From the sequence record SRR22947725_833: a stretch of 42,272 bases of DNA. The stretch is one strand, 5' to 3'. The translations under genes were made by a program, and so were the position numbers. This document shows positions 3,891 through 37,857 of this stretch, in pieces (the stretch's first letter is position 1; the number at the start of each line of letters is the position of its first letter). The notes under the pieces were generated by a model. That model searched no databases, had not been told where the DNA came from, and saw only the letters and a list, made by a program, of their open reading frames with translations.

Positions 3891-3973
3891 ATTGACTCCC
3901 CTACCAATTTTCTCTGTGACTATAGAATACAATTTCTTAGATTGAACTTTAATAAGACCATTTTGTAATCCTG

Positions 3974-4756
3974 TTATATTGTCATAGCAGAAAAACCACC
4001 ATCTATGACAAGTTCAGATCCAGTTACAAACGACGACGCATTTGAAGCAAGATAAATAACACCCCCAACTAATTCCACCACTTCGCCGTAACGTTCCATA
4101 GGCGTATGCCCTAAGATCGCTTTTTCTCGTTCCTTATTAATAAAGTTCTTTCTATTCCAGTCAGTTGGAAAAAAACCAGGCCTTATAGCATTAACCCTAA
4201 CACCTTTTGTACCCCACTCTCGTCCTAAATTTTGCGTTAAATTTAAAATTCCTGCTTTTGCTATTGAGTAGCTAAACGCTTTCGATAGTGGTGGCCCTGC
4301 AGATGCTGAAGATATATTAATAATGGAGCCAGATCCTTTATGAAGCATATGCTCTCCAAACACCTGGCAACCCAATAGAGTCGATGTTACCTGAGAAGAC
4401 ATTACGGTATTAAATTCTTCAAGTTCAATTTCGAGGAAAGGGGTAGGTGAATTTATACCGGCTCCATTAATTAGGATATCTACATCCCCCAACTGATCAA
4501 CTATCGTTTCACAAGATTTTTGAAATGAAGCCTTATCAGTAGCATCGACTTGAACCGCTATTGCCTCTCCACCACTTTCTCGTTTTATTTCATCAGCAAC
4601 GAAAGAAGCTTTGTCATACCGAATATCCATCACTGCAATTTTACACCCAGCCTTTGAAAGGCCACGCGCCATCTCTCCACAAAGGTAACCACCACCACCC
4701 GTTATCGCTGCTACTTTGCCTCCAAGCCCAAATAAATTTTCAATATAAGAAACCAA
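3974..4756 (-). CDS. Short-chain dehydrogenase/reductase (gluconate 5-dehydrogenase/mannonate oxidoreductase-like)
   Basis: TGGGGYLC, INGAG, YSIAK, PGFFPT and VTGSELVIDGG. Probable TTG start at 4756 behind a GAGGT RBS that overlaps the upstream stop. Confidence 0.85.
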   Translation of the reverse strand: MVSYIENLFGLGGKVAAITGGGGYLCGEMARGLSKAGCKIAVMDIRYDKASFVADEIKRESGGEAIAVQVDATDKASFQKSCETIVDQLGDVDILINGAGINSPTPFLEIELEEFNTVMSSQVTSTLLGCQVFGEHMLHKGSGSIINISSASAGPPLSKAFSYSIAKAGILNLTQNLGREWGTKGVRVNAIRPGFFPTDWNRKNFINKEREKAILGHTPMERYGEVVELVGGVIYLASNASSFVTGSELVIDGGFSAMTI

Positions 4757-4758
4757 AA

Positions 4759-5547
4759 CTACCTCATCGAAGAAATCAAAGATTTCATATCCGCCGCCCA
4801 TTTCCACAACACGAAAAGATCTGAACCTAAAACTATCGCGGTATAACCTTGTGCAAAAGCATCATTAACAGCTTCAGTATTAACATCTGAGATCTGAGTC
4901 ATGCAACTAACTCCATTTCGGGCACATGCCTCCACAACACGCTGACACGCCTCTCTTACTTTTGGGTGGTTAGTGTCTCCCGGGAGGCCCAAAGAGCCAG
5001 ATATATCGTATGGCCCTATCATTACAGCATCAATACCATCCACCTGAAGTAATTCCTCGATATTCTCTACTCCAACAATAGATTCAACCTGAATCATACA
5101 TATACTACTCTCATTCCATGTTTTAATATATGCATCAAAGTCAAATCCATAACCATGAGCTCTATTTACTCCAAAACTTCTCTTACCAATTGGTGGAAAT
5201 TTTTGTAGATTTAAAAGTCCTTGAGCTTCTCTCTTCGTATTAACCATCTGAATAATGGTCCCATCAGCTCCCGCCTCGAGTAACGGCTTTATATAATCAT
5301 TATTATGCGAGACTGGTCGCGGCAGACAAATACTTTCTTCTCCCTGAACAGAGGTAATTATTCTATTAGCATCATCTATACTTATAGTTGTGTGTTCCAT
5401 ATCTATAGCTACAAAATCTAACCCTGCTTTCGCAAAAGTTTCTGCTATCGCCGGTTCACGATAGGAAATCCATCCACCAAAAACCCGTTCTCGTTTTCTC
5501 AGTTTTTCTTTTAATTTTTTTCTTCTTTCAAGACGTTGTTCAAACAT
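4759..5547 (-). CDS. HpcH/HpaI (GarL/RhmA-like) class II pyruvate aldolase
   Basis: FVAIDMEH, PPIGKRSFG, IQVES, MIGPYDISGSLG and GSD motifs. Confidence 0.9.
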   Translation of the reverse strand: MFEQRLERRKKLKEKLRKRERVFGGWISYREPAIAETFAKAGLDFVAIDMEHTTISIDDANRIITSVQGEESICLPRPVSHNNDYIKPLLEAGADGTIIQMVNTKREAQGLLNLQKFPPIGKRSFGVNRAHGYGFDFDAYIKTWNESSICMIQVESIVGVENIEELLQVDGIDAVMIGPYDISGSLGLPGDTNHPKVREACQRVVEACARNGVSCMTQISDVNTEAVNDAFAQGYTAIVLGSDLFVLWKWAADMKSLISSMR

Positions 5548-5968
5548 TCCTAACTCCTAAGATAGCTTCTATTGCTGGGTGAAGATGCAAAAGTCCTTCG
5601 AGATTACCATTCTGATCAATAACTGGTAAGTCCCAAATCTGTTTTAACCCCATTGTAGCTATAGCATCAGATACCGAAGTTAGTCGATTAACAGTAACCG
5701 GATTTTTAACTGCATACTCAATAACATCGTCATTAAACAGTGCTGCAAAAGGCTTTTGCACTCTTGTGAGCATCCGCCGAATATCACCATCCGTTATAAC
5801 CCCTTCAAGTTTTCCAAATCCATCAGTTATACAAATAATTCCAAGCCTTTTTTCATCCATTAGATCAAGCGCCTCCTTTAAAAGCGCTCGGTTAGAAATT
5901 CTTGGGGTGAAACTTAAATCAAGCATAACCGATGCAACATCTAAATTACTATTCTTCACGGTGGACAT
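5540..5968 (-). CDS. Stand-alone CBS-pair protein resembling the C-terminal part of KdsD/KpsF
   Basis: LEGVITDGDIRR, NPVTV and LPVIDQNGNLEGLLHLH. No SIS domain is present in the 142 aa. Confidence 0.85.
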   Translation of the reverse strand: MSTVKNSNLDVASVMLDLSFTPRISNRALLKEALDLMDEKRLGIICITDGFGKLEGVITDGDIRRMLTRVQKPFAALFNDDVIEYAVKNPVTVNRLTSVSDAIATMGLKQIWDLPVIDQNGNLEGLLHLHPAIEAILGVRNV

Positions 5969-6830
5969 TATCTTCTCCCCATTTCTCTTGAAGCTCTCTT
6001 CTCAGATCATGCATTGCCTTAGCTTGAGAAAGAACGACTTCTAAATATTTCAAGTCCAAAACAGTGTTAGCATCAGATAATGCATTAGGTGGGTCATCGT
6101 GGACCTCAACAAAAAGAGCATCAATACCACAGGCCGCAGCTGATCTTGTCAAGTGAGGAATAAACTCTCTTTGGCCTCCAGAGATATTCCCCATAGATGT
6201 TGGCATCTGAATCGAGTGGGTTGCGTCAAAACAAACAGGATAACCTGTTTCCGCCATAATTGGTAAAGCACGCATATCGTTAACCAACATGTTATACCCA
6301 AAAAATGTCCCTCTATCTGTTAACAAAATTTCTGAACTACCAAATGACTCTAGCTTACGGCACGAATTTTTCATATTCCAAGGACTCATAAATTGACCTT
6401 TTTTCAAGTGGACAGGTTTTCCAGTCTCAGCAGCCGCTCTAAGAATGGATGTCTGCCGACAGAGATACGCTGGAACTTGGATAAGATCGCAAACCTCTCC
6501 TGTCGCAGCTCCCCAGCTAGGATCTGAAAAATCTGAAGTTACAGGAATACCATGCTCACCCCTAACTTCAGAAAGAACCTTTAAACCCTCCTCAATACCT
6601 AGGCCGTGAAAGCTAGTTGGTGAAGAACGGCAATCTTTGTCATAGCAAGCCTTAAATATCCATTTCACTCCCACCTTATAGCAAACTCTTCCTATAAGTT
6701 CAGCCATTTTCATGGAATGGTCCCTACTCTCAATAGCGCAAGGTCCAGCTATTAAAACTAGATCACCATCGCTGCCTATTAAAATGCTATTTCCTTGTGG
6801 ACCATTAATAATTAATTTTTTCGCTCTCAT
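5949..6830 (-). CDS. kdsA: KDO8P synthase family protein (divergent paralogue, probably metal-dependent)
   Basis: IAGPCAIES, QVPAYLCRQT, KKGQFMSP, RGTFFGY, FDATHSIQMP, GGQREF and EVHDDPPNALSD. The KANRS motif is replaced by KDCRS. Confidence 0.92.
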   Translation of the reverse strand: MRAKKLIINGPQGNSILIGSDGDLVLIAGPCAIESRDHSMKMAELIGRVCYKVGVKWIFKACYDKDCRSSPTSFHGLGIEEGLKVLSEVRGEHGIPVTSDFSDPSWGAATGEVCDLIQVPAYLCRQTSILRAAAETGKPVHLKKGQFMSPWNMKNSCRKLESFGSSEILLTDRGTFFGYNMLVNDMRALPIMAETGYPVCFDATHSIQMPTSMGNISGGQREFIPHLTRSAAACGIDALFVEVHDDPPNALSDANTVLDLKYLEVVLSQAKAMHDLRRELQEKWGEDNVHREE

Positions 6831-6935: not shown

Positions 6936-8564
6936 TCACACGGCTATATCTTTTTCATCAATATTTTCCTTAACCCAACGAGTTAACTCTTCCCTGCCAA
7001 CAACCACTGGAATGTCGGCTTGCATAGGGTTTACTTTTGAAATCAAGCCAGATGGATCATAGTAGCAACATTTCTTTCCCATATTATAAGCTATTATAGC
7101 AGTTGATGTAAAAGGCATACTAATAACTAAATCAACTTTCTCAATAAGGCGGTGGGCCGAAATGCCTGGGTCTATACTAACAGTGTTTTTATACTTTTTA
7201 GAAAAGCCTTCTTCAATTTTTTTTAAGTGCTTTTCCTGTCCAGATCCCAAACGTTTTTTTCGTTTTCTTATCAACATCACGTCATAAATATTAGAGATTT
7301 CTCCTAAGTCATTAAGAAATCTTTTAAGTAAATCCTCATTAATATATTCATACAATTGAGGAGTTATTGATCTTAAATAATGACGTTTCGGTTGAATGTC
7401 AAAAGCAGCAATAGATCGTCTGGGGACCTCTATCAACTCATCATTACTATCAAAATAAGGTATATCCGAAACAATATGAATAATAGGATTATTCTTAACA
7501 AAACTTTTAACAAATCGTTTCTGGCCTTCACCCCAAACCACATAATTATCCCAGCTCATCATATTCCAATGGCTTAATTCTCTCTTCTCAGCTTCAGAAG
7601 GTTGCACAGGGGAGTTGTTAGTTGAATAAAAATATAAAAATGTTTTTATTCCGACTTCATCAAGAACATAGGTCCACATAGGTCTATATACAAAATTTTC
7701 ATGGGCAAACCAGAATTCTCTGGCTGACAAACTAGTGCCATGCATTTTAGCTATATATGCCATGCAAGACTCAGATAAGATTAGTGCAGACCACCACCGC
7801 CCCATAAACATATGGAAAAAAGAAACGACAGAAGCTTTAATACCCCAATAGACAAATAAAAACCATTTTTTTAAACTTGTAAAACGGGGAAAAATACCTG
7901 ACGTAGAGACAACTTTTAGACCATTATAAGTCACATTCGGGGAAACTTTACATTGATGACTTATTTGTTTGATATCCTTATCTCTCTCAGCCCAGTCAAC
8001 GTACCATGTAACTATATTTCTTTGACCCTTATAGTTAAGGTTCGGAATATGTGATTCTACCAAGCCGAGGAAAACGGCGGTCGGTTCCGTATCTAATATG
8101 CCTTTTCTTAATGGAAAAAATTTTATTGCACCTAATACAATAGCCTTAACACCATATAGCCAAAGTAAAACTACATATAAACCCCAACCAATATTAGAGC
8201 ATAGTCTATTAACTGGTATCCCATTATTAATTAATATTTTTTGTAAAAATGGTGGGATACAATGAATAGGTATTGAACTTCCACCAAGAGCTCCATGGAT
8301 AGACCTATGTAAGCTCACCTCTCCAATTCTCTTTATTAAATACTGACGTATAATCAAAGCGGACTTATCACTAGTCGATATAAAAAATAATTTTGATGTT
8401 TTATAACAAAACGCTTTTGGATTGTATTTAGCCATCTCCTCTTTAACTCTAAAAACCAAAGAAAGGTTATTTTGCTCCTTAAGCAATCTATACCCTCTCA
8501 TCGTACTAATTGTTCTAGTACGGTGAAACCTATAAAAAAAAAAATTAAAAAAATTAAAAAACAC
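6936..8564 (-). CDS. Polysaccharide biosynthesis PFTS-motif protein (putative transferase)
   Basis: C-terminal VISMPFTSTAIIA and YYDPSG, internal YRPMWTY and YFYSTN. The start is uncertain (GTG at 8564 directly before poly-T tracts). Confidence 0.75.
   Translation of the reverse strand: MFFNFFNFFFYRFHRTRTISTMRGYRLLKEQNNLSLVFRVKEEMAKYNPKAFCYKTSKLFFISTSDKSALIIRQYLIKRIGEVSLHRSIHGALGGSSIPIHCIPPFLQKILINNGIPVNRLCSNIGWGLYVVLLWLYGVKAIVLGAIKFFPLRKGILDTEPTAVFLGLVESHIPNLNYKGQRNIVTWYVDWAERDKDIKQISHQCKVSPNVTYNGLKVVSTSGIFPRFTSLKKWFLFVYWGIKASVVSFFHMFMGRWWSALILSESCMAYIAKMHGTSLSAREFWFAHENFVYRPMWTYVLDEVGIKTFLYFYSTNNSPVQPSEAEKRELSHWNMMSWDNYVVWGEGQKRFVKSFVKNNPIIHIVSDIPYFDSNDELIEVPRRSIAAFDIQPKRHYLRSITPQLYEYINEDLLKRFLNDLGEISNIYDVMLIRKRKKRLGSGQEKHLKKIEEGFSKKYKNTVSIDPGISAHRLIEKVDLVISMPFTSTAIIAYNMGKKCCYYDPSGLISKVNPMQADIPVVVGREELTRWVKENIDEKDIAV
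8534..8561. repeat. Clustered homopolymer tracts A11, A7 and A6 (poly-T on the coding strand)
   Basis: A11 at 8534-8544, A7 at 8547-8553 and A6 at 8556-8561, each separated by tt. Confidence 0.85.
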
Positions 8565-8751: not shown

Positions 8752-10059
8752 TCATCTTTCATCATTTACTTGGTATTTCATTTTATGAATAGAGATGATT
8801 TCATGTTTCGTTAGCGTATCTATTATAGGATATAATTTCCAAATTGGGACAGCACACAAATCTGCTATTTCTAATAAGGACGTTTGTCCATCTGAATAAG
8901 AAATTACATCCATCAATAGTTTTTGGTTTTCAGTGTGTTTATTCTTTCCTAATGTAGAATAAAGCCCTCTACGACTCATTTGAGGTTCTCCGTAGGTCCG
9001 AACCAGAGGAAAATTATTTTTTTCTATGGCTTCAACGGCTCTAAGGATAGAGACGTATCCACCGTATAGCCCAGAAGGAGTAACCACATTATTTAAATCA
9101 TCCAACGAAGTATGATATTCTGGGTATTCCCCATATTTTGTTCGCATTATTGAGGCTACTGGGAGATCAATTAAGGGCGCACAATATTGTCGTTCATCGC
9201 TACCCCGATCATTCCACCCGAACGTACGGAAGTCTTCATCTATGAATTTTAGTACGTGTTTGGAAATATTATCACTAATCGTATTTCCCTTCCTTGAAGG
9301 TAAATACGAATACGCGCGATCGTCTCCAACGCATGTAATATTAAACCCTGCGTAAACCTTCTCCTTCATATCTTTTAAATTCTTACTCAGATACACGATT
9401 GATCCAATTGTTTCTGGAACAAATACTATCCTGTAAGTATACTCACGATCTTTCATTTCTGAAAAATATTTAGCTAAAAACGTAAGTACTGAAATACCTG
9501 AGATTTCATTATTACCCATTGATGGATGACAAATGTAAGTAGAAAGGAATATTTCCTTACTGCTTCGTCCTTTTAAAATTAATTCACCATAGTTCAAAAT
9601 TCCATCAAAATGTTCAGCGTCTATAAAAACTTCATACTCGCCATCTTCAAGACAGCTACGTTGATCATCCCTTATACAAAAGCCCCACCTCTCTTCATAA
9701 TAAGAAGTAACATATGGAATCGCGTCTGGCTGTTCAGGTAAAGAATACAAATTTTTCTGGAGTTCTTCCAAAGAAAAAAAGCCATGAACTGGCAAACTAT
9801 ATCCTAAAATATGAAGATTATTTTTTTTAAAATCACATATTTTTTTTCCATCAGGCGTCTTAATCCACGCATCTTTCACTAACCATTCTCTCGGCACAAC
9901 CCAGTCAAATGCTTTTGTACCAGTTTTTACTTCATTAACTCTAAGTTCTGGTATATGTTTTCTGATAAGTTCTAAGGTTTGCCTAACACCCTCACCCGTA
10001 ATACTTCTATTTAAGGGCCAGAGCTCTTTCGCAAACTCATGTATACTTTCACCTATCAA
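8752..10059 (-). CDS. DUF4910/DUF2172 aminopeptidase-like protein with C-terminal winged helix (Cj1295-like)
   Basis: LWPLNRSITGEGVRQTL, FDWVVPREW, PDAIPYVTSYY, STYICHPSMGNNEISG, PETIGSI, GSDERQYC, YPEYHTSLD and EPQMSRRGLY. TTG start with GAGG RBS. Confidence 0.92.
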   Translation of the reverse strand: MIGESIHEFAKELWPLNRSITGEGVRQTLELIRKHIPELRVNEVKTGTKAFDWVVPREWLVKDAWIKTPDGKKICDFKKNNLHILGYSLPVHGFFSLEELQKNLYSLPEQPDAIPYVTSYYEERWGFCIRDDQRSCLEDGEYEVFIDAEHFDGILNYGELILKGRSSKEIFLSTYICHPSMGNNEISGISVLTFLAKYFSEMKDREYTYRIVFVPETIGSIVYLSKNLKDMKEKVYAGFNITCVGDDRAYSYLPSRKGNTISDNISKHVLKFIDEDFRTFGWNDRGSDERQYCAPLIDLPVASIMRTKYGEYPEYHTSLDDLNNVVTPSGLYGGYVSILRAVEAIEKNNFPLVRTYGEPQMSRRGLYSTLGKNKHTENQKLLMDVISYSDGQTSLLEIADLCAVPIWKLYPIIDTLTKHEIISIHKMKYQVNDER

Positions 10060-10096
10060 ATTGTCCTCATTTATTTTTTACCTATTAATCAAATAG

Positions 10097-10882
10097 TTAG
10101 TCTATAGAGTACCTATTCCCCTGAGTCAGAATAAAAGGGAATACTTTAATAGTTTTTTTTAGAAATCTAGAGACATCACCACAACTATGTGAACAAATTT
10201 GCCCTCGACCTAAATTTATTTTCTTTGTTATACCTTCCCGTAAGCACATCGTATGAAAAGACTGAAAACTTGGTGTTGCACTCATATCATCTAAATGTCG
10301 TCCAGTGTATACCATTTTTTTTTCAATATTTTCTTCATTAATTAATATTGTTCCCGACAATTCAAAATCAGTTCGGTAGGTGACGCCTATTTCTCTCTCC
10401 ACCCAATGTAAAAAGGTTGAACCACTATCAAAGTTCAAATTACAAATAAGGGCATCTTCCTCAAATAATCGCTCCCAAATACTATTTGGGCCATAGCATA
10501 TATTTCCTACATTCTTAACGATCCGGTATGCTTTTTCTCCAAAACCTACAACTGACAACATTGGGTCTAATGATCTGATACCAACTCCACGCTCTATCAG
10601 TCGGTTAGCAATAGTAGACATTCCTTTAGCTGGTAAACTGGGGTCAAAAACTTTTTCAAACTTTTCAGAGCCAAATGAATATGTGAATGCTGGAACTATT
10701 AATGCACCGGTTGGACCCAGCACATCCATAAATGCCGATAAGAAAATATCAGCCAGCTCATTTGAGTTTGAACAGTTTTTTACCTGCCCAAAAAAAGCTA
10801 AATTAGAGTGACAAAATACGACTCCACCTTCCACAACTCCAGCATCTTTTAAGGCAACGCCAATATCAGTACTACTAATCAT
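10097..10882 (-). CDS. AAC(3)-family (Antibiotic_NAT) N-acyltransferase
   Basis: VFCHSNL, GALIVPAFTYSF, RSLDPMLS, TFLHWVE and YR motifs. Confidence 0.88.
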   Translation of the reverse strand: MISSTDIGVALKDAGVVEGGVVFCHSNLAFFGQVKNCSNSNELADIFLSAFMDVLGPTGALIVPAFTYSFGSEKFEKVFDPSLPAKGMSTIANRLIERGVGIRSLDPMLSVVGFGEKAYRIVKNVGNICYGPNSIWERLFEEDALICNLNFDSGSTFLHWVEREIGVTYRTDFELSGTILINEENIEKKMVYTGRHLDDMSATPSFQSFHTMCLREGITKKINLGRGQICSHSCGDVSRFLKKTIKVFPFILTQGNRYSID

Positions 10883-11136
10883 TAATCAGTTGTCCGTTCA
10901 GTTATTATCTCTATAATACCAAAAACTGATTGCAAGCGCCTGTCTTGAAAAGATTCAGCATCAAACGCAAACCCAAAACTCTCTTCAGCATCAAGTAATA
11001 AGTTCATTAAACTCATAGAATCTAACCTTTGTGAATCGAATAGATTAGTCAGTAGTTTTTCATCTTCACTTTTTTTTGAAAACTCAAAATCAATCTTACT
11101 AATATATTCAAAAATCCAATTTTTTACTTCTGACAT
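10882..11136 (-). CDS. Acyl carrier protein
   Basis: 84 aa acidic protein with the LDSMSLMNL phosphopantetheine site and EESFG. Confidence 0.85.
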   Translation of the reverse strand: MSEVKNWIFEYISKIDFEFSKKSEDEKLLTNLFDSQRLDSMSLMNLLLDAEESFGFAFDAESFQDRRLQSVFGIIEIITERTTD

Positions 11137-11150
11137 AGCAAAACCGTTGA

Positions 11151-11813
11151 TTAATTAATTATAGCAACTGCACGGACTGGAGAACCATCAGCATCTTGAA
11201 TTTTAATCGGGAACGCACTCAACGTAAACTCTGTATCAGGAACCTCGGAAAGGTTGCATAAATACTCCAAAATAGCTACATCGTTTTCAAGAAATATAGT
11301 ATGATTAGGTGAGTCTTTTTCACTATTTCTGCCGTTTGAAGGATTATCTGGCATTGGACTATCAAAACCTACAAGTACAACTCCACATGAAACTAGGTAT
11401 TTACACGCTTCCTCACTTAAAAAAGGATGGTCTGAATAATAACCGAGACTAGGGAGCCGCCTCTCCCAATCAAATCGAAATAATATTCTCTTTGGATAAT
11501 TACATGGTAGTTTTTTTTGTAACATTTCAAGAGTAATCTCTGTTTTGTCTGGTAGCTCAGTAAAGTCTAGCACAAGCGCATTTCCATAATAGATATTAAT
11601 ATCTGTATACTCAATCGTTTTCCCATTTTTTAAAAAGTGTCTAGGCGCATCAACATGGGTTCCTGTATGTGTACCTAAAGTTATCTTCCGAGTCTCTCTG
11701 CCTTCGACCTCGAACCTGCCAAGTTGAGTTATCGAAACAAAAGGATGCCAAGGCACAGGAAATGTCATCATCCCTTCACATATTTTCATACTTAGATCAA
11801 TTATTTTTGTCAT
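11151..11813 (-). CDS. Cyclase family (kynurenine formamidase-like) metal-dependent hydrolase
   Basis: IDLS, HTGTHVDAPRHF, GFD, LEYLCNL and DGSPVRAVA. Alternative TTG start at 11819. Confidence 0.9.
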   Translation of the reverse strand: MTKIIDLSMKICEGMMTFPVPWHPFVSITQLGRFEVEGRETRKITLGTHTGTHVDAPRHFLKNGKTIEYTDINIYYGNALVLDFTELPDKTEITLEMLQKKLPCNYPKRILFRFDWERRLPSLGYYSDHPFLSEEACKYLVSCGVVLVGFDSPMPDNPSNGRNSEKDSPNHTIFLENDVAILEYLCNLSEVPDTEFTLSAFPIKIQDADGSPVRAVAIIN

Positions 11814-12606
11814 TTTCAATCAACTCAAAAAAAGGGAGGGCTTCGCCTGAAAATAGAGCAATTATTAATCTTTGTCCATTAACATTTAAAATGAAACGAT
11901 CAATTTGATTTAAACCTGGGTAACGTCCATCATATTCAACTGGTAAATTTCTAGCCATAAACGCTAGAGCCGTGCATCCAGCATTGTCTATTTTACTATT
12001 AGGTCCCCAGTCCTTATGATATACCTTAGGCGCTAATATAATATGAGCTGACAAGGCTGGAATCGGTGTCAATAAAGACCAAATCTCGGTATTAGATTTT
12101 TCAAACCTTAAGCTAGACAATAAACCAGTTATATCTTTACCACTATCAACCAATATAATTGCTATGAAAAGGCCAGCACTTTCTTCTAATTTCAAAGGTG
12201 ACCAAAGTATGTGCATCTCTAACAATGAATCATAAAATATGAATATTTTTCTTTTTAAAGATCTTTCTATTTTTTTAATGGTCATTGCTGAAATTGGTAA
12301 ATCTTCAACTGTTTTTTGCTCCCACCCATTCAACAATTTATCACTTCTAAATATAGGAAGTATATTTGAATTTTCAGGGTTAAGCTGACTCCCGTGAAAA
12401 AGTAATTCAATCGACATACCAGAATCATTTTTAAGAAAGGTAATATCGTGGTTACTTACATAGTGATTTAAAAAAGGTTTCTTTGATAGATGGTTGCTCA
12501 ATTGTCTTTCTTCAAATTGAGTTTTATATCCAAATTCTTTTAATCTTTTTTTACTCACTGTCAGGTTAGTACTATTAATAGCTATATGACTGAGACCTAA
12601 GATCAC
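11797..12606 (-). CDS. VOC/glyoxalase-like protein
   Basis: N-terminal GLSHIAI, internal SIELL and C-terminal FELIE fit vicinal-oxygen-chelate metal ligands. Otherwise divergent. Confidence 0.55.
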   Translation of the reverse strand: MILGLSHIAINSTNLTVSKKRLKEFGYKTQFEERQLSNHLSKKPFLNHYVSNHDITFLKNDSGMSIELLFHGSQLNPENSNILPIFRSDKLLNGWEQKTVEDLPISAMTIKKIERSLKRKIFIFYDSLLEMHILWSPLKLEESAGLFIAIILVDSGKDITGLLSSLRFEKSNTEIWSLLTPIPALSAHIILAPKVYHKDWGPNSKIDNAGCTALAFMARNLPVEYDGRYPGLNQIDRFILNVNGQRLIIALFSGEALPFFELIENDKNN

Positions 12607-12607
12607 T

Positions 12608-14059
12608 TTATAGTCTATCTTTTGCTATATTTAGTTTTAGCTTTTTTCTTTTAATTTTACCTGTAGTAGTAACTGGTATCATTTCTACAAAGGCAACATG
12701 ATCAATAGAAATTCGACCTTTTTTATTTAAAATTTTATTACAATAAGCCTTAAATAAGTCAGCATTACGGTTGTCTATTTCACCTTGAACAACTAAAACT
12801 AAACTCTCACCCAATATTTCATCTAAAAAACTTGATATACAAAAGTTTGTTTGTCCTGGTAAATTTTTTATTTCTTTCTCTATACTAATAGGGTTTATAT
12901 TTACACCACCCCGAACAATTAATTCATCTGAGCGCCCATTTATTTTCAATCTCCCTTGCGAATTAATAAAAACCAAATCGCTAGTTTGGAAGGAACTCCT
13001 AAGCTCATAAAACTCTCCATCCTCTATCCAACCCAAACATCTATAAGGACTGTCTATCAATGCTAAGCCAGAGTCATCTATCGTAACTTCTATGCCTGGA
13101 AGCAACGTGCCAGTATAATCAAAGCAAAATTCTTCTAATTTATCTACAGATACATACAGTAACTCCGACAAACCGTATGATTGTAAAGGCGGCAGTCCAT
13201 ATTCTTTTAGAAATAAATGGGCTTTATCAGGTGCTAACGAACCGGTTCCTACAAATATATTTTTTAATAAAGGAGGTAACCTTTTATCAGTTCTGTCGAG
13301 CTTCATTATCATTATTAACATAGAGGGCGATAGCCAGAGGGAAGTAATATTATATTCATTCACTGTCTTCCAGAAATTTAGTGCCATCTTAGTGTCAAAA
13401 GCCTTATCAATTACAACAGAGGCGGTGGCAGTTAGTGGAGCAAATATTCCATTAAATATTCCGGCCATATAGTGCATGGGCATTACATTGAGAAAAGTAT
13501 CCGCACCTGAAATTCCTGTCATTTCATTAAAAGAATATGCACATTTCAAATAACTTTCAGCGGAGTGAATGATACCTTTTGGTTTACCAGTAGTTCCACT
13601 AGTAAATGTAACAGTAAGTGGACTGTTCTCTGGCACTTCGATTGGCTTATTTACTGGCAGTTGCTCAATTTTTTTCCAGTCAAAATTAATTATTTCATGA
13701 ACGCTAGTCTCATTTAAGTTTTGTCTACTACAATCTATAATCTTGGCTTTAGGTGAAAATTTTATAATTTCGAAAATTTCTTGATCTTTGATTGTTGGTG
13801 GCAAAACATACGTACAAAAACCGCCGCGCATACAACTTAGTAAAATTACTGCTGACTCTAACGTATTATCACATATGCTAATAATTTTCTTATCTTCACC
13901 AAGATCTAAATTTAACAAAAATCCACAAAATTTGTCGATAAGGGTAATCAGACGAGCCCCTGACAAATATGTTATCTCCGGCTCATAGGTTCGATCAGTT
14001 ATGATATTTTTTTTACAGTCTAAAATATTATAAAAAAATTGATCAATCAGTTTTGACAT
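12608..14059 (-). CDS. AMP-dependent synthetase/ligase (acyl-CoA or acyl-ACP ligase)
   Basis: TFTSGTTGKPKG, SYGLSE, FQTSD, GRSDELIVRGGVNINP and TTTGKI. Confidence 0.92.
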   Translation of the reverse strand: MSKLIDQFFYNILDCKKNIITDRTYEPEITYLSGARLITLIDKFCGFLLNLDLGEDKKIISICDNTLESAVILLSCMRGGFCTYVLPPTIKDQEIFEIIKFSPKAKIIDCSRQNLNETSVHEIINFDWKKIEQLPVNKPIEVPENSPLTVTFTSGTTGKPKGIIHSAESYLKCAYSFNEMTGISGADTFLNVMPMHYMAGIFNGIFAPLTATASVVIDKAFDTKMALNFWKTVNEYNITSLWLSPSMLIMIMKLDRTDKRLPPLLKNIFVGTGSLAPDKAHLFLKEYGLPPLQSYGLSELLYVSVDKLEEFCFDYTGTLLPGIEVTIDDSGLALIDSPYRCLGWIEDGEFYELRSSFQTSDLVFINSQGRLKINGRSDELIVRGGVNINPISIEKEIKNLPGQTNFCISSFLDEILGESLVLVVQGEIDNRNADLFKAYCNKILNKKGRISIDHVAFVEMIPVTTTGKIKRKKLKLNIAKDRL

Positions 14060-14080
14060 TGGAAACCAACCAAAGAATCA

Positions 14081-15142
14081 TTATAACTCATTTTGTTCTT
14101 CTCCAAAATATTTCGCTAATGAGAATCGGTGATTAAATCCTTCTTCCTTTGTAATGGCTCGAATTTCTTTAGCTTTACGTTCGACCAAATCTGCTGGAGC
14201 AAAGTCAATATTTTCAGAACAAACTTCTACAATTAATCTCCTTGGGTCAATATCATATTTGAGTGAAAATTCTTGAATTACCTTCATATAACTGGAATGA
14301 AAGCCTGAATACCCACAAATTACATCAATGGTATCCGATCCGATCTGACTTAAAAGGGGTCTAATAAAAGTCTCAGAAATATCTAATAAGCGCATCAAAT
14401 CAATATCTAACAACTTTCCTTCGCGTTGCATAATACCAACAAATTGTTCTATTTGAGTGTTGCCAGCACTTCGTCCCATTCCTTGTAGTGAACAATCAAT
14501 AATTGCTGCACCACAGTCAGCAGCAACCATTGAGTTGGCGACGGCTAATCCCAAATTATTATGCGCGTGGAAACCAAAAGATAAATCCGACAATCTTTCA
14601 CAGTATGTTCTTGTCATTTTGGGTGTTAAGTTTCCAGCAGAGTCCACGATATATACATGGTCTGCACCAAAGCCAATCGCCTGTCGAGCAGCTTTCTCAA
14701 AAAGAATAGGAGATCTGGCATATGATTTCATAAAGTTTACACACGTAACTATTCCAGCGGTCTTTGCCTTCCGTATAAATGGTTCGGCCTTCATAACATC
14801 ATCAATACTAACTCCAATACGAATAAACCCCATATTATAATCAATACACATGTCCAAGTCACCTACAGAACTAATACCAGGTATCGCAAACATTCCCCAT
14901 AAAGATCTTGATAACGAACTAGAGGCGGCCTTCATGTACTCTTCGTCACTTTCTCGAGCAAGCCCATAACCTGCTTCAGACGCATTTAAACCTACACCAT
15001 GACCAATCTCAATTAAATTTATGTTAGCCTGCTGAAGTTCGGAACAAATTTCAGACGTCTGTTTCGAATTAAAGTCAAAATTGTTTACGTAGGATCCATC
15101 TCGAAGAGTAGTATCTAGTATCTTCATTTTTTCATTCGTCAT
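14081..15142 (-). CDS. 4-hydroxy-2-oxovalerate aldolase-like (DmpG/HMGL-like DRE-TIM) enzyme
   Basis: LDTTLRDGSY, EIGHGVGL, VDSAG, GFHAHNNLGLAVANS, GMGRSAGN and a C-terminal GYSGFHSSY communication-domain-like segment. Start set to the ATG at 15142. Confidence 0.88.
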   Translation of the reverse strand: MTNEKMKILDTTLRDGSYVNNFDFNSKQTSEICSELQQANINLIEIGHGVGLNASEAGYGLARESDEEYMKAASSSLSRSLWGMFAIPGISSVGDLDMCIDYNMGFIRIGVSIDDVMKAEPFIRKAKTAGIVTCVNFMKSYARSPILFEKAARQAIGFGADHVYIVDSAGNLTPKMTRTYCERLSDLSFGFHAHNNLGLAVANSMVAADCGAAIIDCSLQGMGRSAGNTQIEQFVGIMQREGKLLDIDLMRLLDISETFIRPLLSQIGSDTIDVICGYSGFHSSYMKVIQEFSLKYDIDPRRLIVEVCSENIDFAPADLVERKAKEIRAITKEEGFNHRFSLAKYFGEEQNEL

Positions 15143-15207: not shown

Positions 15208-16251
15208 CTAGTTTATTTTTATTGGCTCTCCAAAATCAAAATTTCTATCAGAACATTTACCAAGCAGTGTAGCATAATATCTTGGATGTGCACCAAAACC
15301 AGGTCGTACGACTTTTATATTTCTTTTTGTAAAAATATCACCCTTTTTTATTTTTTCTGACGCATAAATAGATCGCCTAAACTGAATATTCAGTTTTTCC
15401 TTTTCTGATAGATCAAAGCTAATATTTCCTAAAGACTTCCACGCATTTTGGCACTCTGTTACCAAAGACTTCATCTCCACTGGGTCTGCTGAAAAAGACG
15501 CATCCACACCTCCCAAACTTTTATCTGAAGTAAAATGCTTTTCAATAATAGTAGCACCAAGTGCTACACTAGCTACGGACACACCAATTCCCATTGAATG
15601 ATCTGAAAGCCCAATTTCACAACAAAACTTTTGTCTCATGTAAGGAATTGACAATAAATTACTATCCCCTACATCTGCTGGGTAATCAGAAGTACATTTT
15701 AACAATGCCAGCTCAGTACATCCAGCAGCCCTCGCCGTGTCAACAGCTTCATCAATTTCATCCTCAGAGGCCGTTCCAGACGATATAATTAAAGGCTTTC
15801 CGGTAGAAGCTACCTTCCTGATTAAAGGAATGTGATTATTTTCAAATGATGCGATCTTATAGGCAGGTGTATTTAAATCCTCCATAAATTCAACAGAGGT
15901 TTCATCAAAAACTGAGCTAAAACAGGTCAAACCATATTTAGAGCATTCCAACATAATATCTTTCACCCAATCCCAGTCTGTATACGCATCCCGGTAGAGG
16001 TCATATAAATACCTATTGGACCATAAGCTGTCAGGGTTTATAATTTTAAAGTCGTCTTTTTTACTATTTAAAGTAATAGTATCTGGAGTGTACGTCTGAA
16101 GTTTCAACGCATCTACTCCGCAAGCCGCTGCTGATTTTATTATGGAAAGTGCGTGATCAAAGGACTGATTATGATTGCCAGACATTTCAGCAATTATAAA
16201 AGGTTTTTTACTTTGATTAATAGCTCTTTGACTTATAAAGAATGGTTCCAT
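15208..16251 (-). CDS. pseI: Pseudaminic acid synthase
   Basis: FIIAEMSGNHNQS, KLQTYTPDTITL, YKIASFE, LKCTSDYPA, GLSDH, IEKHF, GGVDASFS and a SAF domain (RRSIY, RPGFG). Located with pseB/pseC. Confidence 0.93.
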   Translation of the reverse strand: MEPFFISQRAINQSKKPFIIAEMSGNHNQSFDHALSIIKSAAACGVDALKLQTYTPDTITLNSKKDDFKIINPDSLWSNRYLYDLYRDAYTDWDWVKDIMLECSKYGLTCFSSVFDETSVEFMEDLNTPAYKIASFENNHIPLIRKVASTGKPLIISSGTASEDEIDEAVDTARAAGCTELALLKCTSDYPADVGDSNLLSIPYMRQKFCCEIGLSDHSMGIGVSVASVALGATIIEKHFTSDKSLGGVDASFSADPVEMKSLVTECQNAWKSLGNISFDLSEKEKLNIQFRRSIYASEKIKKGDIFTKRNIKVVRPGFGAHPRYYATLLGKCSDRNFDFGEPIKIN

Positions 16252-16275: not shown

Positions 16276-16905
16276 TTAATTAATGCTTTTAGTGAGTTTT
16301 TTAAGTAATGTGGCAATAGTTCCATCATCTGTGTTTACTTTTTTAAAAATTTCTTCTGCTTCCTTAGGCGCAACTCGGAAAGCTAACCTCATTAGATTCA
16401 TCCAATTAACATTATTTTTTGAACGTATTCTCTCTATTTCATTGATAATTAATACTTTATTTAAATATAATAAACTTTCCCTACCACTCTCGTACAATGA
16501 AAACCCACTTCGTTCAAAACATTTTTGGCTAGAAATATTTTCTGGCCTGATACTTGCCGATAAAACTAAAACTCTATTAAGTGAAAAGGCTTGAATAGCC
16601 GTATCTAATAGTATCGAAGAAACCTTTCTTCCTCTCCACCTAGTATTAACATTAATAGAAACACTCGCATAATCCTGATTTTTATCAATATCAAAACGAA
16701 CCATTCCAACCGAGGACCCATCATCATTGACCCCTATAAAAATTTCGGAATCCACATCTTCTAGCTTATTATGAAACCATCTCTTATGTTCATCTTTATT
16801 GATTTTTTTTGTTGAAAAAGAGTTATATTTAGCATCTTTTTCATTGCGCCATTCTAATAGTTTTGTTTCATCTTCTATAGTCATTTTTCGTACTTTTAAA
16901 TTCAT
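16276..16905 (-). CDS. PseH-like GNAT N-acetyltransferase with a fused ~55 aa C-terminal helical domain
   Basis: LLEWRN, EHKRWF, VGMVRFD, RWRGRK and NISSQKCFERSGF. C-terminal extension IINEIERIRSKNNVNWMNLMRLAF. Alternative GTG start at 16914. Confidence 0.8.
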   Translation of the reverse strand: MNLKVRKMTIEDETKLLEWRNEKDAKYNSFSTKKINKDEHKRWFHNKLEDVDSEIFIGVNDDGSSVGMVRFDIDKNQDYASVSINVNTRWRGRKVSSILLDTAIQAFSLNRVLVLSASIRPENISSQKCFERSGFSLYESGRESLLYLNKVLIINEIERIRSKNNVNWMNLMRLAFRVAPKEAEEIFKKVNTDDGTIATLLKKLTKSIN

Positions 16906-16954
16906 AATACTCACCTAAAACTTATTTTTACTTTTTGAAAAATAAATAATTCTA

Positions 16955-17644
16955 CTATTTTTTTCTTGCTACAAAAATATGCCACTTATATGAAAGACCA
17001 AACCAATCCATATTAATTTCAGCTACAGAAAAATCGGTAAACTTAGACGAAAAACAACTCTTAATTTCCTCTATTGAATTGAAACATCTCATTAACTCAC
17101 CATCACGGGCTCCAAAATAATCATTCACTATTACTCGGTATCCTGCCTTAGAAGCAGGCAAACTATCCTTAAAAATAAAACAATCTTCTTTGGGTATAGA
17201 GGCAATAATCCATCCATTTTTCTTGATCACACGCGCCATTTCAAGCACGTGATCTGAAAACGTTGTGTGGTTTAAAGACATATAGTAACAACTATTCCAG
17301 GTTAGTAAAAAATCAAATGTATCACTTTCATAGGGCAACTCACCGCAATGACCTGTAACGATATCAAAATCTAAACCAATATCATTTAAATTTTTTTTAA
17401 CGGTGGTACAGATATCATCTGAAATCTCTACACCATCGGCTTTCAAACCAATACTTTCGAAAAAACTTAAATGACGTCCATCCCCACATCCTACATCCAA
17501 AATTTTTGCACCTTCAAGCGGCTTATCCATTTTTAGTTTTGGAAAGCTACCCTTAAAAATACGGATAACACCTTCAGCTGGATATGAGATAGAAGAACTT
17601 TTTTTATAAATATTATGCCATACATTAGCTGCATTGAACTTCAT
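16955..17644 (-). CDS. Class I SAM-dependent methyltransferase
   Basis: ILDVGCGDGRH, GVEIS, LPYESDTFD and RVIKKNG. ATG at 17644 has a GGAGG RBS. Confidence 0.9.
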   Translation of the reverse strand: MKFNAANVWHNIYKKSSSISYPAEGVIRIFKGSFPKLKMDKPLEGAKILDVGCGDGRHLSFFESIGLKADGVEISDDICTTVKKNLNDIGLDFDIVTGHCGELPYESDTFDFLLTWNSCYYMSLNHTTFSDHVLEMARVIKKNGWIIASIPKEDCFIFKDSLPASKAGYRVIVNDYFGARDGELMRCFNSIEEIKSCFSSKFTDFSVAEINMDWFGLSYKWHIFVARKK

Positions 17645-17746
17645 ATTATCCTCCAATTCAAAAACACTTTATCGTATTAAACTCTTTATTGTAATATTAA
17701 TATGATCAATGCCCCGAGCAAGCATATGGGTTTCAATTCAATTAAT

Positions 17747-18508
17747 TTATTGATTTTTTATCAACGTATTAAAACGTTCTGTCTCATCTCGTGGTGGGGT
17801 AGAATTAAAATGTAATAACTTCTTATCTTTAATGCTTAATTGATTCACCTTATCAGTCATCATAAGCGGAAAGTTAAAGTAAGGCTTGATAAACCATGGA
17901 CCGTATAGATTAAAGACACCCCATCGCCTCGCCGATGTCGATACTCCGCCCTTATGCCAAATACCTGAATCAAATATTACGACATCTCCCACGCTACCCT
18001 CCATTAGAAAACTACTATAATCACCGTCCCTCAACGGTCTATCAGTTCTTAAATGTGAATTAGGTACATATGCAGTTGCACCATTTTGTTCAGAAAACGA
18101 ATCCAGCATCACAAGAACGCTAAAAAAGATACCTGGTTCCATTCTCTTACCACCAACATATCTACTATCAGTGTGCCAGTCTTGACCAACTGCTATACTA
18201 CTTTCATTATCTTCAGATGAAATCCTATTGATTGCATTACAAGCCACCAGAACATAATCTTCGTCAATAACTTTGGTTAAAATCGAATCAACTGGGTCAA
18301 TATTTACTAATCTCATTAATTCTGGCTCGTGGCGCATAAAGTTTGGGGTAAATGTAGAATCCTTACCCACTGTGTAGCTCAATTCTGAAGAATTTTTTTC
18401 TACAATATTTTCTAAATGGTGAATAAATATTTCACACTCTTTCAAACTAAATACATCTCGTATTATTGTATAACCATTTGATTTTAATTCATTTACATTA
18501 TCCATCAT
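17747..18508 (-). CDS. PhyH-family Fe(II)/2-oxoglutarate dioxygenase
   Basis: NGYTII, WHTD (HxD), NGATAYVPNSH, GDVVIFDSGIWHKGG and a distal Arg. Confidence 0.9.
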   Translation of the reverse strand: MMDNVNELKSNGYTIIRDVFSLKECEIFIHHLENIVEKNSSELSYTVGKDSTFTPNFMRHEPELMRLVNIDPVDSILTKVIDEDYVLVACNAINRISSEDNESSIAVGQDWHTDSRYVGGKRMEPGIFFSVLVMLDSFSEQNGATAYVPNSHLRTDRPLRDGDYSSFLMEGSVGDVVIFDSGIWHKGGVSTSARRWGVFNLYGPWFIKPYFNFPLMMTDKVNQLSIKDKKLLHFNSTPPRDETERFNTLIKNQ

Positions 18509-18541
18509 TTAACCTTTCATCCTAAAGTTACCAAAACTGTG

Positions 18542-19228
18542 TTAGCGTTTTACAAACATTCCAATCATCGTTCTAGATTTTCCTTTCAAAAAATTAGGTA
18601 CAAATTTTGTTCTACCAGAAAACGGAAATAACTTACCTATGAGAAATTGGAGTCTCCATGGAAGTGACCAAATAAATGCCGGCTTCCCTACTGTCCATAA
18701 CCCTACTTTACAAGGATCAAAATTGTACATTTGCATTAACCAAGATAGACCCCGAGGGGTGTAAGCTTTTTTGTGATCTGGATCATCATAGAAAGTAAAA
18801 CCCTCCGATGATACATTAGTGGTTATAATTACACAAACACCACCTTTATCAAGGATACGGTGTATTTCTGTAATTATATTATAAGGATTGCCAATATGCT
18901 CAATCACGCCATAAAGAGTTATTAGTTTAAATTGTCCATCAGAGAATGGCAGTGGATCTTTTTCAAAGTTTACCCCATCAGATATATCGATCCCTTCAGA
19001 GACCCAGCCATTATCAGCATATACCTTACTCAGACATCGATCACCGCACCCTAAATCAAGATGTTTAGAGTTCTTACTTTCAAAACCATGAAATTTAATA
19101 AACCTTTTAATTGTTTCATAACTTCTAACACAAGTTTTATATCTGAACGGGTCATAAAGAGTTTCGATACGGCGTTTATTATAAATAATTGTAGACAGTA
19201 CTTGTTTGTCCATAAAAAAGTCTTTCAA
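18542..19228 (-). CDS. Class I SAM-dependent methyltransferase (Methyltransf_11-like)
   Basis: HLDLGCGD, LPFSDGQF, VIEHI, RILDKGG and FYDDPDH. The start may be the ATG at 19213. Confidence 0.88.
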   Translation of the reverse strand: MKDFFMDKQVLSTIIYNKRRIETLYDPFRYKTCVRSYETIKRFIKFHGFESKNSKHLDLGCGDRCLSKVYADNGWVSEGIDISDGVNFEKDPLPFSDGQFKLITLYGVIEHIGNPYNIITEIHRILDKGGVCVIITTNVSSEGFTFYDDPDHKKAYTPRGLSWLMQMYNFDPCKVGLWTVGKPAFIWSLPWRLQFLIGKLFPFSGRTKFVPNFLKGKSRTMIGMFVKR

Positions 19229-33320: not shown

Positions 33321-33333
33321 GGCTTTCTTATTT

Positions 33334-34254: not shown

Positions 34255-34256
34255 CT

Positions 34257-37794: not shown

Positions 37795-37857
37795 TTGTCA
37801 ACAATCTCTAATTTTAAACCATTATAATTTATCACTCTCTATCTGCTAGAAGCGGAT

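Follow-up and report, generated by a model that had tools for sequence, protein, structure and literature searches.

A conserved gene cassette beside pseI that may direct carrier-dependent N-acylation of pseudaminic acid-type sugars

Gene content of the locus

Flagellins, capsules and O-antigens are capped by nonulosonic acids such as pseudaminic acid (Pse), whose N-acyl groups influence surface properties. We analyzed a 42,272-nucleotide stretch of DNA (sequence record SRR22947725_833, hereafter the window) in which seven genes follow the pseudaminic acid synthase gene pseI, encoding an aldolase, an adenylating ligase, a VOC protein, a cyclase-family hydrolase, an acyl carrier protein (ACP), an AAC(3)-like transferase (AAC3) and a DUF4910 protein. 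By open reading frame (ORF) calls and family scans of the whole window, they belong to a surface-polysaccharide island that forms one long minus-strand gene run (3-39749). The seven ORFs directly after pseI are separated by intergenic gaps of -23 to 65 nt and together span 8752-15142 (Table 1). A preliminary description made from the sequence had reported them as contiguous and co-oriented; all are present on the minus strand, with exact coordinates. A scan for promoters and terminators was uninformative on the operon ends, as its yield showed no excess over shuffled sequence (39 versus 37.2 sites and 1 versus 4.9 terminators).

Table 1. Features of the cassette, of its surroundings in the window and of related loci. 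Positions without prefix refer to the window; L numbers denote other loci (see text).
Feature	Position	Strand	Remarks
pseI (pseudaminic acid synthase)	15208-16251	-	TIGR03586, 454 bits (cut-off 340); context, outside the portable cassette
DmpG/BphI-like class II pyruvate aldolase, 353 aa	14081-15142	-	ATG at 15142, 65 nt after pseI
ANL-superfamily adenylating ligase, 483 aa	12608-14059	-	21-nt gap to aldolase gene
Two-domain VOC (glyoxalase-fold) metalloprotein, 269 aa	11797-12606	-	1-nt gap to ligase gene
KynB-type 'cyclase'-family binuclear-metal amidohydrolase, 222 aa	11151-11819	-	Overlaps VOC gene
DltC-like acyl/aminoacyl carrier protein (ACP), 84 aa	10882-11136	-	14-nt gap to cyclase gene
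AAC(3)-fold N-acyltransferase, 261 aa	10097-10882	-	TAATG stop/start overlap with ACP gene
DUF4910/DUF2172/HTH_47 protein, 435 aa	8752-10059	-	37-nt gap to AAC(3)-like gene; 187 nt to next gene
Class I SAM methyltransferase, 233 aa	16955-17656	-	Eighth cassette partner; split from aldolase gene by pseI and a GNAT gene
PFTS-motif polysaccharide biosynthesis protein	6936-8564	-	Directly downstream of DUF4910 gene
Second ulosonic-acid module	2350-6830	-	
KdsC-like phosphatase	30497-31105	+	
Genes between pseI and the fusion gene	16276-19228	-	
Cytidylyltransferase::class-III aminotransferase fusion, 680 aa	20769-22811	-	
RmlD::PseC fusion	24271-26361	-	
Nucleotidyltransferase/dehydrogenase block	31761-39749	-	
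Pelagibius cassette	L003:7509-13826		
Conserved protein of about 350 aa	L002:6280-7332	-	Upstream of cassette
Conserved protein of about 350 aa	L005:307-1356	-	Upstream of cassette
AAC3::DUF4910 fusion, 653 aa	L063:5551-7512	-	
Protein with C-terminal AAC3 domain, 779 aa	L066:6636-8975	-	
AAC3::FkbH fusion, 848 aa	L079:2309-4855	-	

Conservation and horizontal spread of the cassette

To locate further copies, an alignment of the VOC family was used, the wider VOC alignment being too divergent for scanning. With one genome per species, three loci were obtained from 15 pattern matches: the cyanobacterial metagenome-assembled genome Kaiparowitsia implicata (L001), Nioella halotolerans W635 (L002) and Pelagibius litoralis DSM 21314 (L003). 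The metagenome scan yielded nine loci from 69 pattern matches, eight of them new, since L011 is the same contig as L001. Beyond the window, the cassette order was thus kept at 11 distinct loci; their sources are one cyanobacterium, two alphaproteobacteria and metagenomes of marine origin. The full order aldolase-ligase-VOC-cyclase-ACP-AAC3-DUF4910 was found in L001, L002, L003 and L007 (tblastn with the window proteins), and six short contigs hold two to six consecutive members in the same order up to the contig ends. The arrangement is therefore not due to chance, and the earlier proposal that the seven genes act as one functional unit is well supported by this synteny.

Identities to the window proteins were 59-63% for the aldolase, 40-42% for the ligase, 51-57% for the ACP, 48-49% for AAC3 and 47-50% for the DUF4910 protein. 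The VOC protein was less similar (32-36%, rising to 58-61% in L004 and L010), and the cyclase was the most conserved cassette protein at 63-87% (63-68% in general and 84-87% in L004 and L010). The inventory of seven genes had missed a conserved partner, the methyltransferase at 16955-17656. Orthologues with 47-53% identity to it lie divergently right upstream of the aldolase gene in L001, L003, L005 and L007, that is, in four of the five loci with a visible upstream side, L002 being the exception. By analogy, the methyltransferase suggests that the product may be O-methylated, as is the C. jejuni sugar discussed below.

The hosts range in G+C content from 35% to about 65%, and for the aldolase, cyclase, AAC3 and DUF4910 proteins the identity between the cyanobacterial and the alphaproteobacterial copies is 70-77%. 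In Pelagibius, the cassette has a G+C content of 52.7% compared to 61-66% in its flanks; sugar-ABC-transporter and PfkB genes border it at one edge and FdhD at the opposite edge. The G+C contrast together with the cross-phylum identity is a signature of apparent horizontal spread of the whole cassette.

Parts of the stretch were present in 19 sequencing runs, which stem from 11 studies and bear marine, estuary or seawater labels throughout; coverage along the stretch was examined for the runs X1, X2, X18 and X19, in which uncovered bins carry no meaning, and shares under 0.2 in the remaining runs do not count as evidence. Near-identical contigs (0-4 differing letters per listed piece) came from two metagenome runs with marine and estuary labels. 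Short, near-identical metatranscriptome contigs from two runs of two studies cover parts of the DUF4910, AAC3, cyclase, aldolase, pseI and GNAT genes and of the ligase/aldolase junction. Because DNA can occur in RNA libraries, they are only a weak hint of cassette expression.

Enzymes that may supply and modify the acyl group

The aldolase belongs to the HMGL-like family (PF00682, 111 bits), passes the HOA-aldolase subfamily model NF006049 (269 bits, cut-off 229) and falls below the DmpG-type equivalog TIGR03217 (240 bits versus a cut-off of 286). It matches PDB entries 8ih7 and 1nvm at E 1e-43. R14, D15, H192 and H194 are invariant in six orthologues, which means that the Asp/His/His metal site and the enolate-stabilizing Arg are kept. 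In the alignment to 1nvm, His21 of DmpG is replaced by Tyr (LRDGSY versus LRDGSH) and Tyr291 by His (GFHSS versus GVYSS), the two residues being the catalytic pair of DmpG. The swapped motifs are likewise invariant in six orthologues, and the N-terminal motif is nearer to that of the orphan 'putative aldolase' 3dxi (RDGGY...DFNSK). As had been noted, the usual acylating acetaldehyde dehydrogenase partner is absent: no DmpF-type dehydrogenase domain was found among the scanned window ORFs or in the flanks of the loci.

The enzyme thus shares with the DmpG/BphI plus DmpF systems of meta-cleavage pathways the HMGL TIM barrel, the Asp/His/His site, the Arg of the LRDG motif and part of the communication domain, whereas it differs from them in lacking a DmpF partner, in the His21 to Tyr and Tyr291 to His exchanges and in scoring below the equivalog cut-off. 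It had been proposed to build a hydroxy or keto acid; given the His/Tyr swap, its chemistry may depart from that of DmpG. Its reaction is probably still the making or breaking of a C-C bond beside a 2-oxo acid.

The second enzyme is an AMP-binding protein (PF00501, 130 bits) whose best NCBIfam match is MenE-like (148 bits), under every equivalog cut-off. Its sequence contains the P-loop-like motif TFTSGTTGKPKG (T/S-G-T-T-G-x-P-K-G type; TSGTTGKPKG) and a C-terminal GKIKR, and no solved structure is nearer than oxalyl-CoA synthetase (E 9e-21). This ligase is presumed to be the loader of the carrier protein.

No Pfam match was obtained for the VOC protein of the window even at E=10. An AlphaFold (AF2) model built from five sequences (pLDDT 67) aligned with the two-domain VOC structures 1zsw (Bacillus cereus), 3zi1 (human GLOD4) and 6bnx (maize glyoxalase I) at a Foldseek probability of 1.0 and a TM score of about 0.5, and the Atlas model of P0004, a homologue of the window protein, aligned to VOC clusters at TM 0.7-0.8. 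Among 50 sequences (the window protein and 49 distant relatives), 29 matched Glyoxalase_4 and 22 matched Glyoxalase. The original VOC label, with its paired beta-alpha-beta-beta-beta modules around a metal cup, is therefore borne out by the fold model, the homologue and the Pfam matches of the relatives.

The VOC family is rare. A word-indexed search of 5.8 billion clusters returned only four close homologues, and an exhaustive profile search gave 684 representatives at E<=1e-3, 21 of them at E<=1e-30. Among 401 sampled genomes of the class of Pelagibius, the family was found in Pelagibius itself and not in the rest searched; the plasmid collection likewise held no relative. H7, K42, H53, E67 and E261 are invariant across the 50 sequences. 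The resulting His/His/Glu/Glu set, drawn from the first and last modules, looks more like the site of glyoxalase I or methylmalonyl-CoA epimerase than like the 2-His-1-carboxylate site of the dioxygenases. Alternatively, the protein may decarboxylate the 2-oxo acid oxidatively, yielding a 2-hydroxy acid shorter by one carbon.

The cyclase (PF04199, 91.9 bits) matches kynurenine formamidase (PDB 4cz1) at E 1e-20 and lies below the arylformamidase equivalog TIGR03035 (101 bits versus a cut-off of 223). The segment GTHTGTHVDAPRHF (HxGTHxDxPxH motif), DSPNH and E185 are invariant in nine orthologues, and a distal His and Glu are kept; we assume that the conserved motif residues correspond to the six Zn ligands of KynB. 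A cassette that removes an acetyl group before adding another acyl group needs an amidohydrolase, and the KynB-like enzyme therefore competes with the DUF4910 protein for the deacylase role. The DUF4910 protein had been put forward as the deacylase that unmasks the amine; it remains a candidate, yet the KynB-like enzyme, with its metal ligands kept, is at least as good a one. An alternative role of the cyclase would be to form or open a lactone or lactam on a 4-hydroxy acid.

Carrier protein and AAC(3)-like transferase

The small ACP scored 18.8 bits against PP-binding, under the cut-off of 20.8, while all eight of its orthologues matched at E<=0.01 (best 1.1e-5). Ser40 within LDS(M/I) is invariant, with LDSM in the window protein, and the family profile matches D-alanyl carrier proteins in PDB (DltC, 1dv5, E 9e-6). 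These three observations confirm the earlier assignment as a carrier protein. Directly ahead of the AAC(3)-like gene there is always an ACP gene, and in the window, L001 and L002 the stop codon of the ACP gene overlaps the AAC(3)-like start, an arrangement from which the two genes are predicted to be translationally coupled.

The AAC(3)-like protein matches Antibiotic_NAT (PF02522) with 74.8 bits (cut-off 25). It does not appear to be a resistance-type AAC(3), as it is far under the NCBIfam equivalog AAC_3 (33.5 bits versus a cut-off of 270). In a search with the single sequence, the PDB match was FrbF (3sma, E 1e-4), and the family profile matched AAC(3) structures at about E 2e-6.

A known analogue of the loading step is DltA/DltC-dependent D-alanylation, in which a stand-alone ligase of the ANL type and a small stand-alone carrier likewise serve the decoration of a cell-surface polymer; the best PDB matches of the ACP profile are DltC structures. 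The cassette differs in that the ligase is MenE-like, an AAC(3)-fold transferase takes the place of DltB/DltD and the product would presumably be an amide on a nucleotide sugar.

The DUF4910 protein and its published counterparts

The last protein of the cassette matches PF16254 (323 bits), DUF2172 (125 bits) and, at its C-terminus, HTH_47 (75 bits), and its alignment to PDB 3k9t (CA_C2195 of Clostridium acetobutylicum) covers 420 residues (E 8e-104). It retains the motifs CHPSMGNNE and EYHTS. In CA_C2195, a single Zn ion is bound by H189, D195 and H324, and the catalytic Asp/Glu of M28 peptidases is replaced by Ser/Pro (Das 2014). Both His ligands as well as the Ser and the Pro are present in the window protein, in which Asn-Glu stands in place of the Asp-Asn of CA_C2195; this 'NNE' variant occurred in 16 of the 19 surveyed loci in which the motif pair was found. 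By sequence, the protein appears to be a clear homologue of the CA_C2195 and Cj1295 type. With this Zn motif kept, and with aldolase, cyclase and VOC protein each having invariant metal ligands, the enzymes of the cassette are likely to be active.

The neighborhood of CA_C2195 resembles the cassette in combining DUF4910 with an aminosugar N-acetyltransferase, acpA, a NeuB-type synthase and a 'glyoxylase', and it includes a fusion of an N-acetyltransferase to a HAD phosphatase (Das 2014). It differs in that the available account names no ligase, aldolase or cyclase; the feeder there is apparently of the HAD/FkbH type, and the function was deduced from the neighborhood. The association of DUF4910 with an aminosugar N-acetyltransferase and an ACP is thus already in print (Das 2014).

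A second counterpart is the pse locus of Campylobacter jejuni, in which acp, HAD and fabH genes lie near Cj1295 and Cj1296/7 is a putative AAC(3)-family member. Cj1295 is required for the di-O-methylglyceroyl derivative of Pse, and removal of the 5-N-acetyl group was advanced by the authors as a hypothesis (Hitchen 2010). The link between Cj1295 and the dimethylglyceroyl sugar and the adjacent N-acetyltransferase gene, both invoked in the preliminary description, are found in that paper. On the published description rather than on a sequence comparison, the C. jejuni locus is similar in pairing a DUF4910-type protein with an adjacent N-acetyltransferase and in placing an O-methylated hydroxyacyl amide on Pse; it differs in that its acyl group is derived from glycerate and in that the accessible part of the paper reports no aldolase, VOC protein or cyclase (Hitchen 2010). 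In a further setting, 19 of 135 Pelagibacter genomes were reported to contain a DUF4910 family that shows signs of exchange with Prochlorococcus (2026 preprint), which fits a general mobility of these genes.

Related modules at other DUF4910 loci

A sample of 401 genomes from the phylum of Pelagibius contained DUF4910 (PF16254) in 29 cases, and the 14 controls contained none. We surveyed the 20 matches with the most flanking sequence (up to 20 kb each; Pelagibius and matches at contig ends were set aside). In the family scan, 58 of the 88 greedily called ORFs were compared with Pfam and NCBIfam, so that the gene counts are lower bounds. Within the fetched regions, tblastn detected an AAC(3)-like gene in 8 of the 20 loci and a relative of the VOC protein or the cyclase in none. 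Of the eight AAC(3)-bearing loci, at least four hold carrier-protein ORFs, at least three hold AMP-binding ligases (L069, L073 and L076) and at least one holds an FkbH fusion.

In L076, pseB, pseC and, further on, pseI are followed by ACP, AMP-ligase, FabG-like SDR, AAC3 and DUF4910 genes, which appears to be a simpler module of the same logic as the cassette. L069 has a DltA-like ligase (TIGR01733, 279 bits) followed by an ACP, an unknown ORF and AAC3, and a Maf glycosyltransferase, a DUF4910 protein and a methyltransferase lie alongside; in L073, a ligase precedes an ACP (22.9 bits). L063 combines an ACP-like ORF (19.9 bits, under the cut-off) with an AAC3::DUF4910 fusion. FkbH domains load glyceryl units on carrier proteins, as established for methoxymalonyl-ACP pathways, and in L079 such a domain (TIGR01686, 270 bits, cut-off 147) is fused to AAC3 next to DUF4910. 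The same type of fusion adjoins acpA and CA_C2195 in C. acetobutylicum (Das 2014). The L066 protein with a C-terminal AAC3 domain adjoins a glutamate-mutase-like gene and methyltransferases. An 'aldolase-like' match beside DUF4910 in L067 was rejected as a relative of the cassette enzyme, as it is a LeuA-type isopropylmalate synthase.

The sister modules L076, L069 and L079 are thus like the cassette in uniting a carrier or loader with an AAC(3)-like protein and DUF4910 next to pse or maf genes, and differ from it in their feeder enzymes, with AAC3 only 26% identical. As far as can be read from gene content, the comparison shows the window to be one variant of a putative module family with a constant core and differing feeder enzymes.

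Link to pseudaminic acid genes

Upstream of pseI, the window contains pseB (503 bits), an RmlD::pseC fusion (443 bits) and GNAT genes (NCBIfam). The Kaiparowitsia cassette is surrounded by pseI, pseB, pseC, an aldo-keto reductase gene and a pseG-pseH fusion (TIGR03590, 254 bits), and this locus also holds a 54%-identical copy of the cytidylyltransferase::class-III aminotransferase fusion of the window. A PseI-type synthase occurs in all three cassette genomes, in two above the cut-off and in Nioella just short of it (331 versus 340 bits), compared to 1 of 14 controls above the cut-off; this co-occurrence is supportive but statistically thin. Within the DUF4910 survey, a NeuB/PseI-type gene lies within 10 kb in 7 of the 20 loci, three of which also have AAC3.

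The neighbors of the cassette in L003 and L007 are transport and housekeeping genes, and those in L002 include a sulfotransferase and a weakly BFO_1060-like glycosyltransferase. The last is a conserved protein that stands upstream of the cassette in both L002 and L005 (54% mutual identity); its similarity to the BFO_1060 family (E 1e-8) is weak and far under the cut-off.

Further genes of the island

In the RmlD::PseC fusion, the reductase domain is N-terminal (TIGR03588, 443 bits), and Kaiparowitsia PseC aligns to the aminotransferase half only. The cytidylyltransferase::aminotransferase fusion joins a CTP_transf_3 domain to a class-III (GSA-aminomutase-like) aminotransferase; its N-terminal part is weakly KdsB-like and falls short of PseF, and the genomes of Nioella and Pelagibius yielded no orthologue of the fusion. 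Between pseI and this fusion lie genes for a PseH-like GNAT, the cassette methyltransferase, a PhyH-type Fe/2OG dioxygenase and a second methyltransferase, which may serve further tailoring of the same sugar or acyl group.

On the other side of the cassette, the PFTS-motif protein scores 226 bits against TIGR04417 and has no Pfam match. A second ulosonic-acid module comprises a KdsA-like synthase (336 bits), a CBS pair resembling the C-terminus of KpsF, an HpcH/HpaI aldolase, two SDRs and a KdsB-like cytidylyltransferase; its KdsC-like phosphatase lies farther upstream on the other strand. The block at the far upstream end encodes a double nucleotidyltransferase, a xylose-isomerase-like TIM barrel, a ribulose-phosphate 3-epimerase homologue, two Zn alcohol dehydrogenases, a 592-aa protein of no family and a GT2 glycosyltransferase, and looks like a pathway for an alditol- or ketose-phosphate unit.

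Discussion

From the gene content, the family and fold assignments, the metal ligands and the cross-phylum synteny observed here, we infer every chemical step of the route below as well as its acceptor and the identity of the acyl group. The reading that we favor, and consider reasonably likely, is that the seven genes and the methyltransferase form a self-contained mobile cassette for the carrier-dependent N-acylation of a Pse-type nonulosonic-acid precursor with an unusual short acyl group, probably a short O-methylated hydroxy or oxo acid made from pyruvate. The orphan class II aldolase would join pyruvate and a small aldehyde to a 4-hydroxy-2-oxo acid, which the VOC metalloenzyme, with its isomerase- or epimerase-like site, would reshape and the methyltransferase would O-methylate. 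The ANL ligase would then adenylate the acid and load it onto the DltC-like carrier, and the AAC(3)-fold enzyme would move the acyl group from the phosphopantetheine arm of the carrier to a sugar amine, as an amide. Beforehand, the KynB-like hydrolase or the single-Zn DUF4910 hydrolase would remove the ordinary acetyl group of the Pse pathway, so that the cassette would edit a finished sugar of the Pse5Ac7Ac type. A cassette that works far from a pse operon fits such editing of the finished diacetyl sugar.

Several observations weigh against this reading on chemical and pathway grounds. The canonical His21 is absent from the aldolase, whose chemistry may therefore differ from that of DmpG, and 2-oxo acids are unusual substrates for adenylation. 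Between the module types, the ligases are not orthologous. The window contains pseB, pseC and pseI and has no clear pseF, and pseG was not detected within 1-42272 by tblastn with the Kaiparowitsia PseG-PseH fusion as query; its own sugar pathway is therefore non-canonical.

The same machinery could also work with its roles distributed otherwise, the DUF4910 protein being the acyl transferase or transamidase and the AAC(3)-like protein an acetyl-CoA-dependent N-acetyltransferase or an accessory, which we consider unlikely. This distribution would agree with C. jejuni, where Cj1295 alone switches the dimethylglyceroyl modification on: in strain NCTC 11168, neither flagellin variant has the 'N-acetyltransferase' Cj1296/7 in frame, and yet the Cj1295-ON variant makes the acylated sugar (Hitchen 2010, Table 1). 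If this holds for the strain analyzed, the acetyltransferase is dispensable there and DUF4910 could be the transferase, which speaks against the favored assignment. Moreover, cj1295 is called a 'putative transferase' correlated with pse genes in a survey of C. jejuni (2026 C. jejuni survey). In our own data, 12 of the 20 DUF4910 loci lack an AAC(3)-like gene in the fetched region, and the protein keeps its single-Zn site while the catalytic Asp/Glu of M28 is gone. On the other hand, L005 holds the ACP, AAC3 and all feeder genes, six cassette genes in all, together with the methyltransferase, and these are followed by 900 nt without a trace of DUF4910. DUF4910 is therefore not always needed in cis, a point that tells against both assignments of its role. 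The stop/start overlap of the ACP and AAC3 genes in the window, L001 and L002 argues for a carrier-linked AAC3, and an AAC3::DUF4910 fusion fits two cooperating activities better than a redundant one. Taken together, L005 and the fusion in L063 suggest that AAC3 and DUF4910 may cooperate and that neither is universal. That an AAC(3) domain is fused to the carrier-loading FkbH domain and lies repeatedly beside carriers and ligases is the strongest available support for carrier-dependent transfer. The original suggestion that AAC(3) takes its acyl group from an acyl-ACP is strengthened by these ligases, carriers and the FkbH fusion at DUF4910 loci and weakened by the C. jejuni reading frame.

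The acceptor could also be something other than Pse, such as another polysaccharide amino sugar or a non-sugar amine, with the adjacency to pseI a by-product of insertion into a variable island; we judge this improbable. The cassette lies away from pse genes in three of the five loci with visible flanks (L002, L003 and L007), and these cases count against a Pse-type acceptor. No pse gene was found in the 7-10 kb flanks of L003 in Pelagibius, whose pseB, pseC, pseG-H and pseI are on another contig, or of L007, a 167-kb metagenome contig; in Nioella, none was found upstream of L002, and the contig ends right after DUF4910. Furthermore, the sole NeuB-type synthase of Nioella is only 35% identical to the window PseI and below the PseI cut-off, and a single-sequence search places the transferase nearest, among solved structures, to FrbF, which PDB annotates just as 'FrbF' and whose substrate is a CMP-linked phosphonate. 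However, the cassette is directly linked to pse genes in two very distant hosts, that of the window and the cyanobacterium, and NeuB/PseI-type genes near DUF4910, in part together with AAC3, recur in the survey; the weakly BFO_1060-like glycosyltransferase upstream in L002 and L005 also speaks against this alternative.

Operons for the meta-cleavage of aromatic compounds typically encode a two-domain VOC dioxygenase, a hydrolase and a DmpG-like aldolase. The cassette contains the same enzyme classes, and extradiol dioxygenases and HPPD are among the fold matches of its VOC protein, at a low TM of 0.2-0.3. A catabolic or small-molecule pathway of this kind, unrelated to glycans, is nevertheless highly improbable: no DmpF, hydratase or dehydrogenase was found, and the carrier, the adenylating ligase, the AAC(3)-like protein and the DUF4910 protein have no place in catabolism. 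The best fold matches of the VOC protein are glyoxalase-type rather than dioxygenases, and its invariant His/His/Glu/Glu set is spread over the first and last modules.

It was already known that DUF4910, an AAC(3)-like acetyltransferase and an ACP occur with nonulosonate genes, a biochemically uncharacterized association (Das 2014; Hitchen 2010). What is new here is a variant set apart by the His/Tyr-swapped orphan aldolase, a new VOC family and the KynB-like hydrolase. We found no description of this enzyme set in the open-access literature, the supplementary neighborhood tables of Das 2014 (229 genomes) lying outside the search. More tentatively, and with doubt, one may go further and suppose that the swapped aldolase, the new VOC family and the KynB-like enzyme make an N-acyl substituent new to nonulosonic acids, that this is the first AAC(3)-fold enzyme shown to use a carrier instead of CoA and that the cassette is a plug-in editing unit for Pse-makers after horizontal transfer. 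The product could then be a di-hydroxy C4-C5 acid bearing an O-methyl group, for instance, or a lactone or lactam made from such an acid.

To explain N-acyl substitutions in genetic and biochemical terms has been called 'a major challenge' (Friedrich 2017). The cassette is not a new principle, and it offers a testable entry to the open problem of sugar N-acylation enzymology: a compact eight-gene test system with the harmless, cultured marine carriers Pelagibius litoralis DSM 21314 and Nioella halotolerans W635. The sister modules, fed by FkbH, DltA-like ligases or a ketoreductase, suggest a rule in which a core of carrier, AAC(3)-fold enzyme and DUF4910 is combined with exchangeable feeders that set the acyl group. 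If true, this rule would explain much of the N-acyl diversity of nonulosonic acids, and it would give a function to many 'AAC(3) family' genes that are annotated as antibiotic resistance while scoring far below the cut-off for resistance enzymes.

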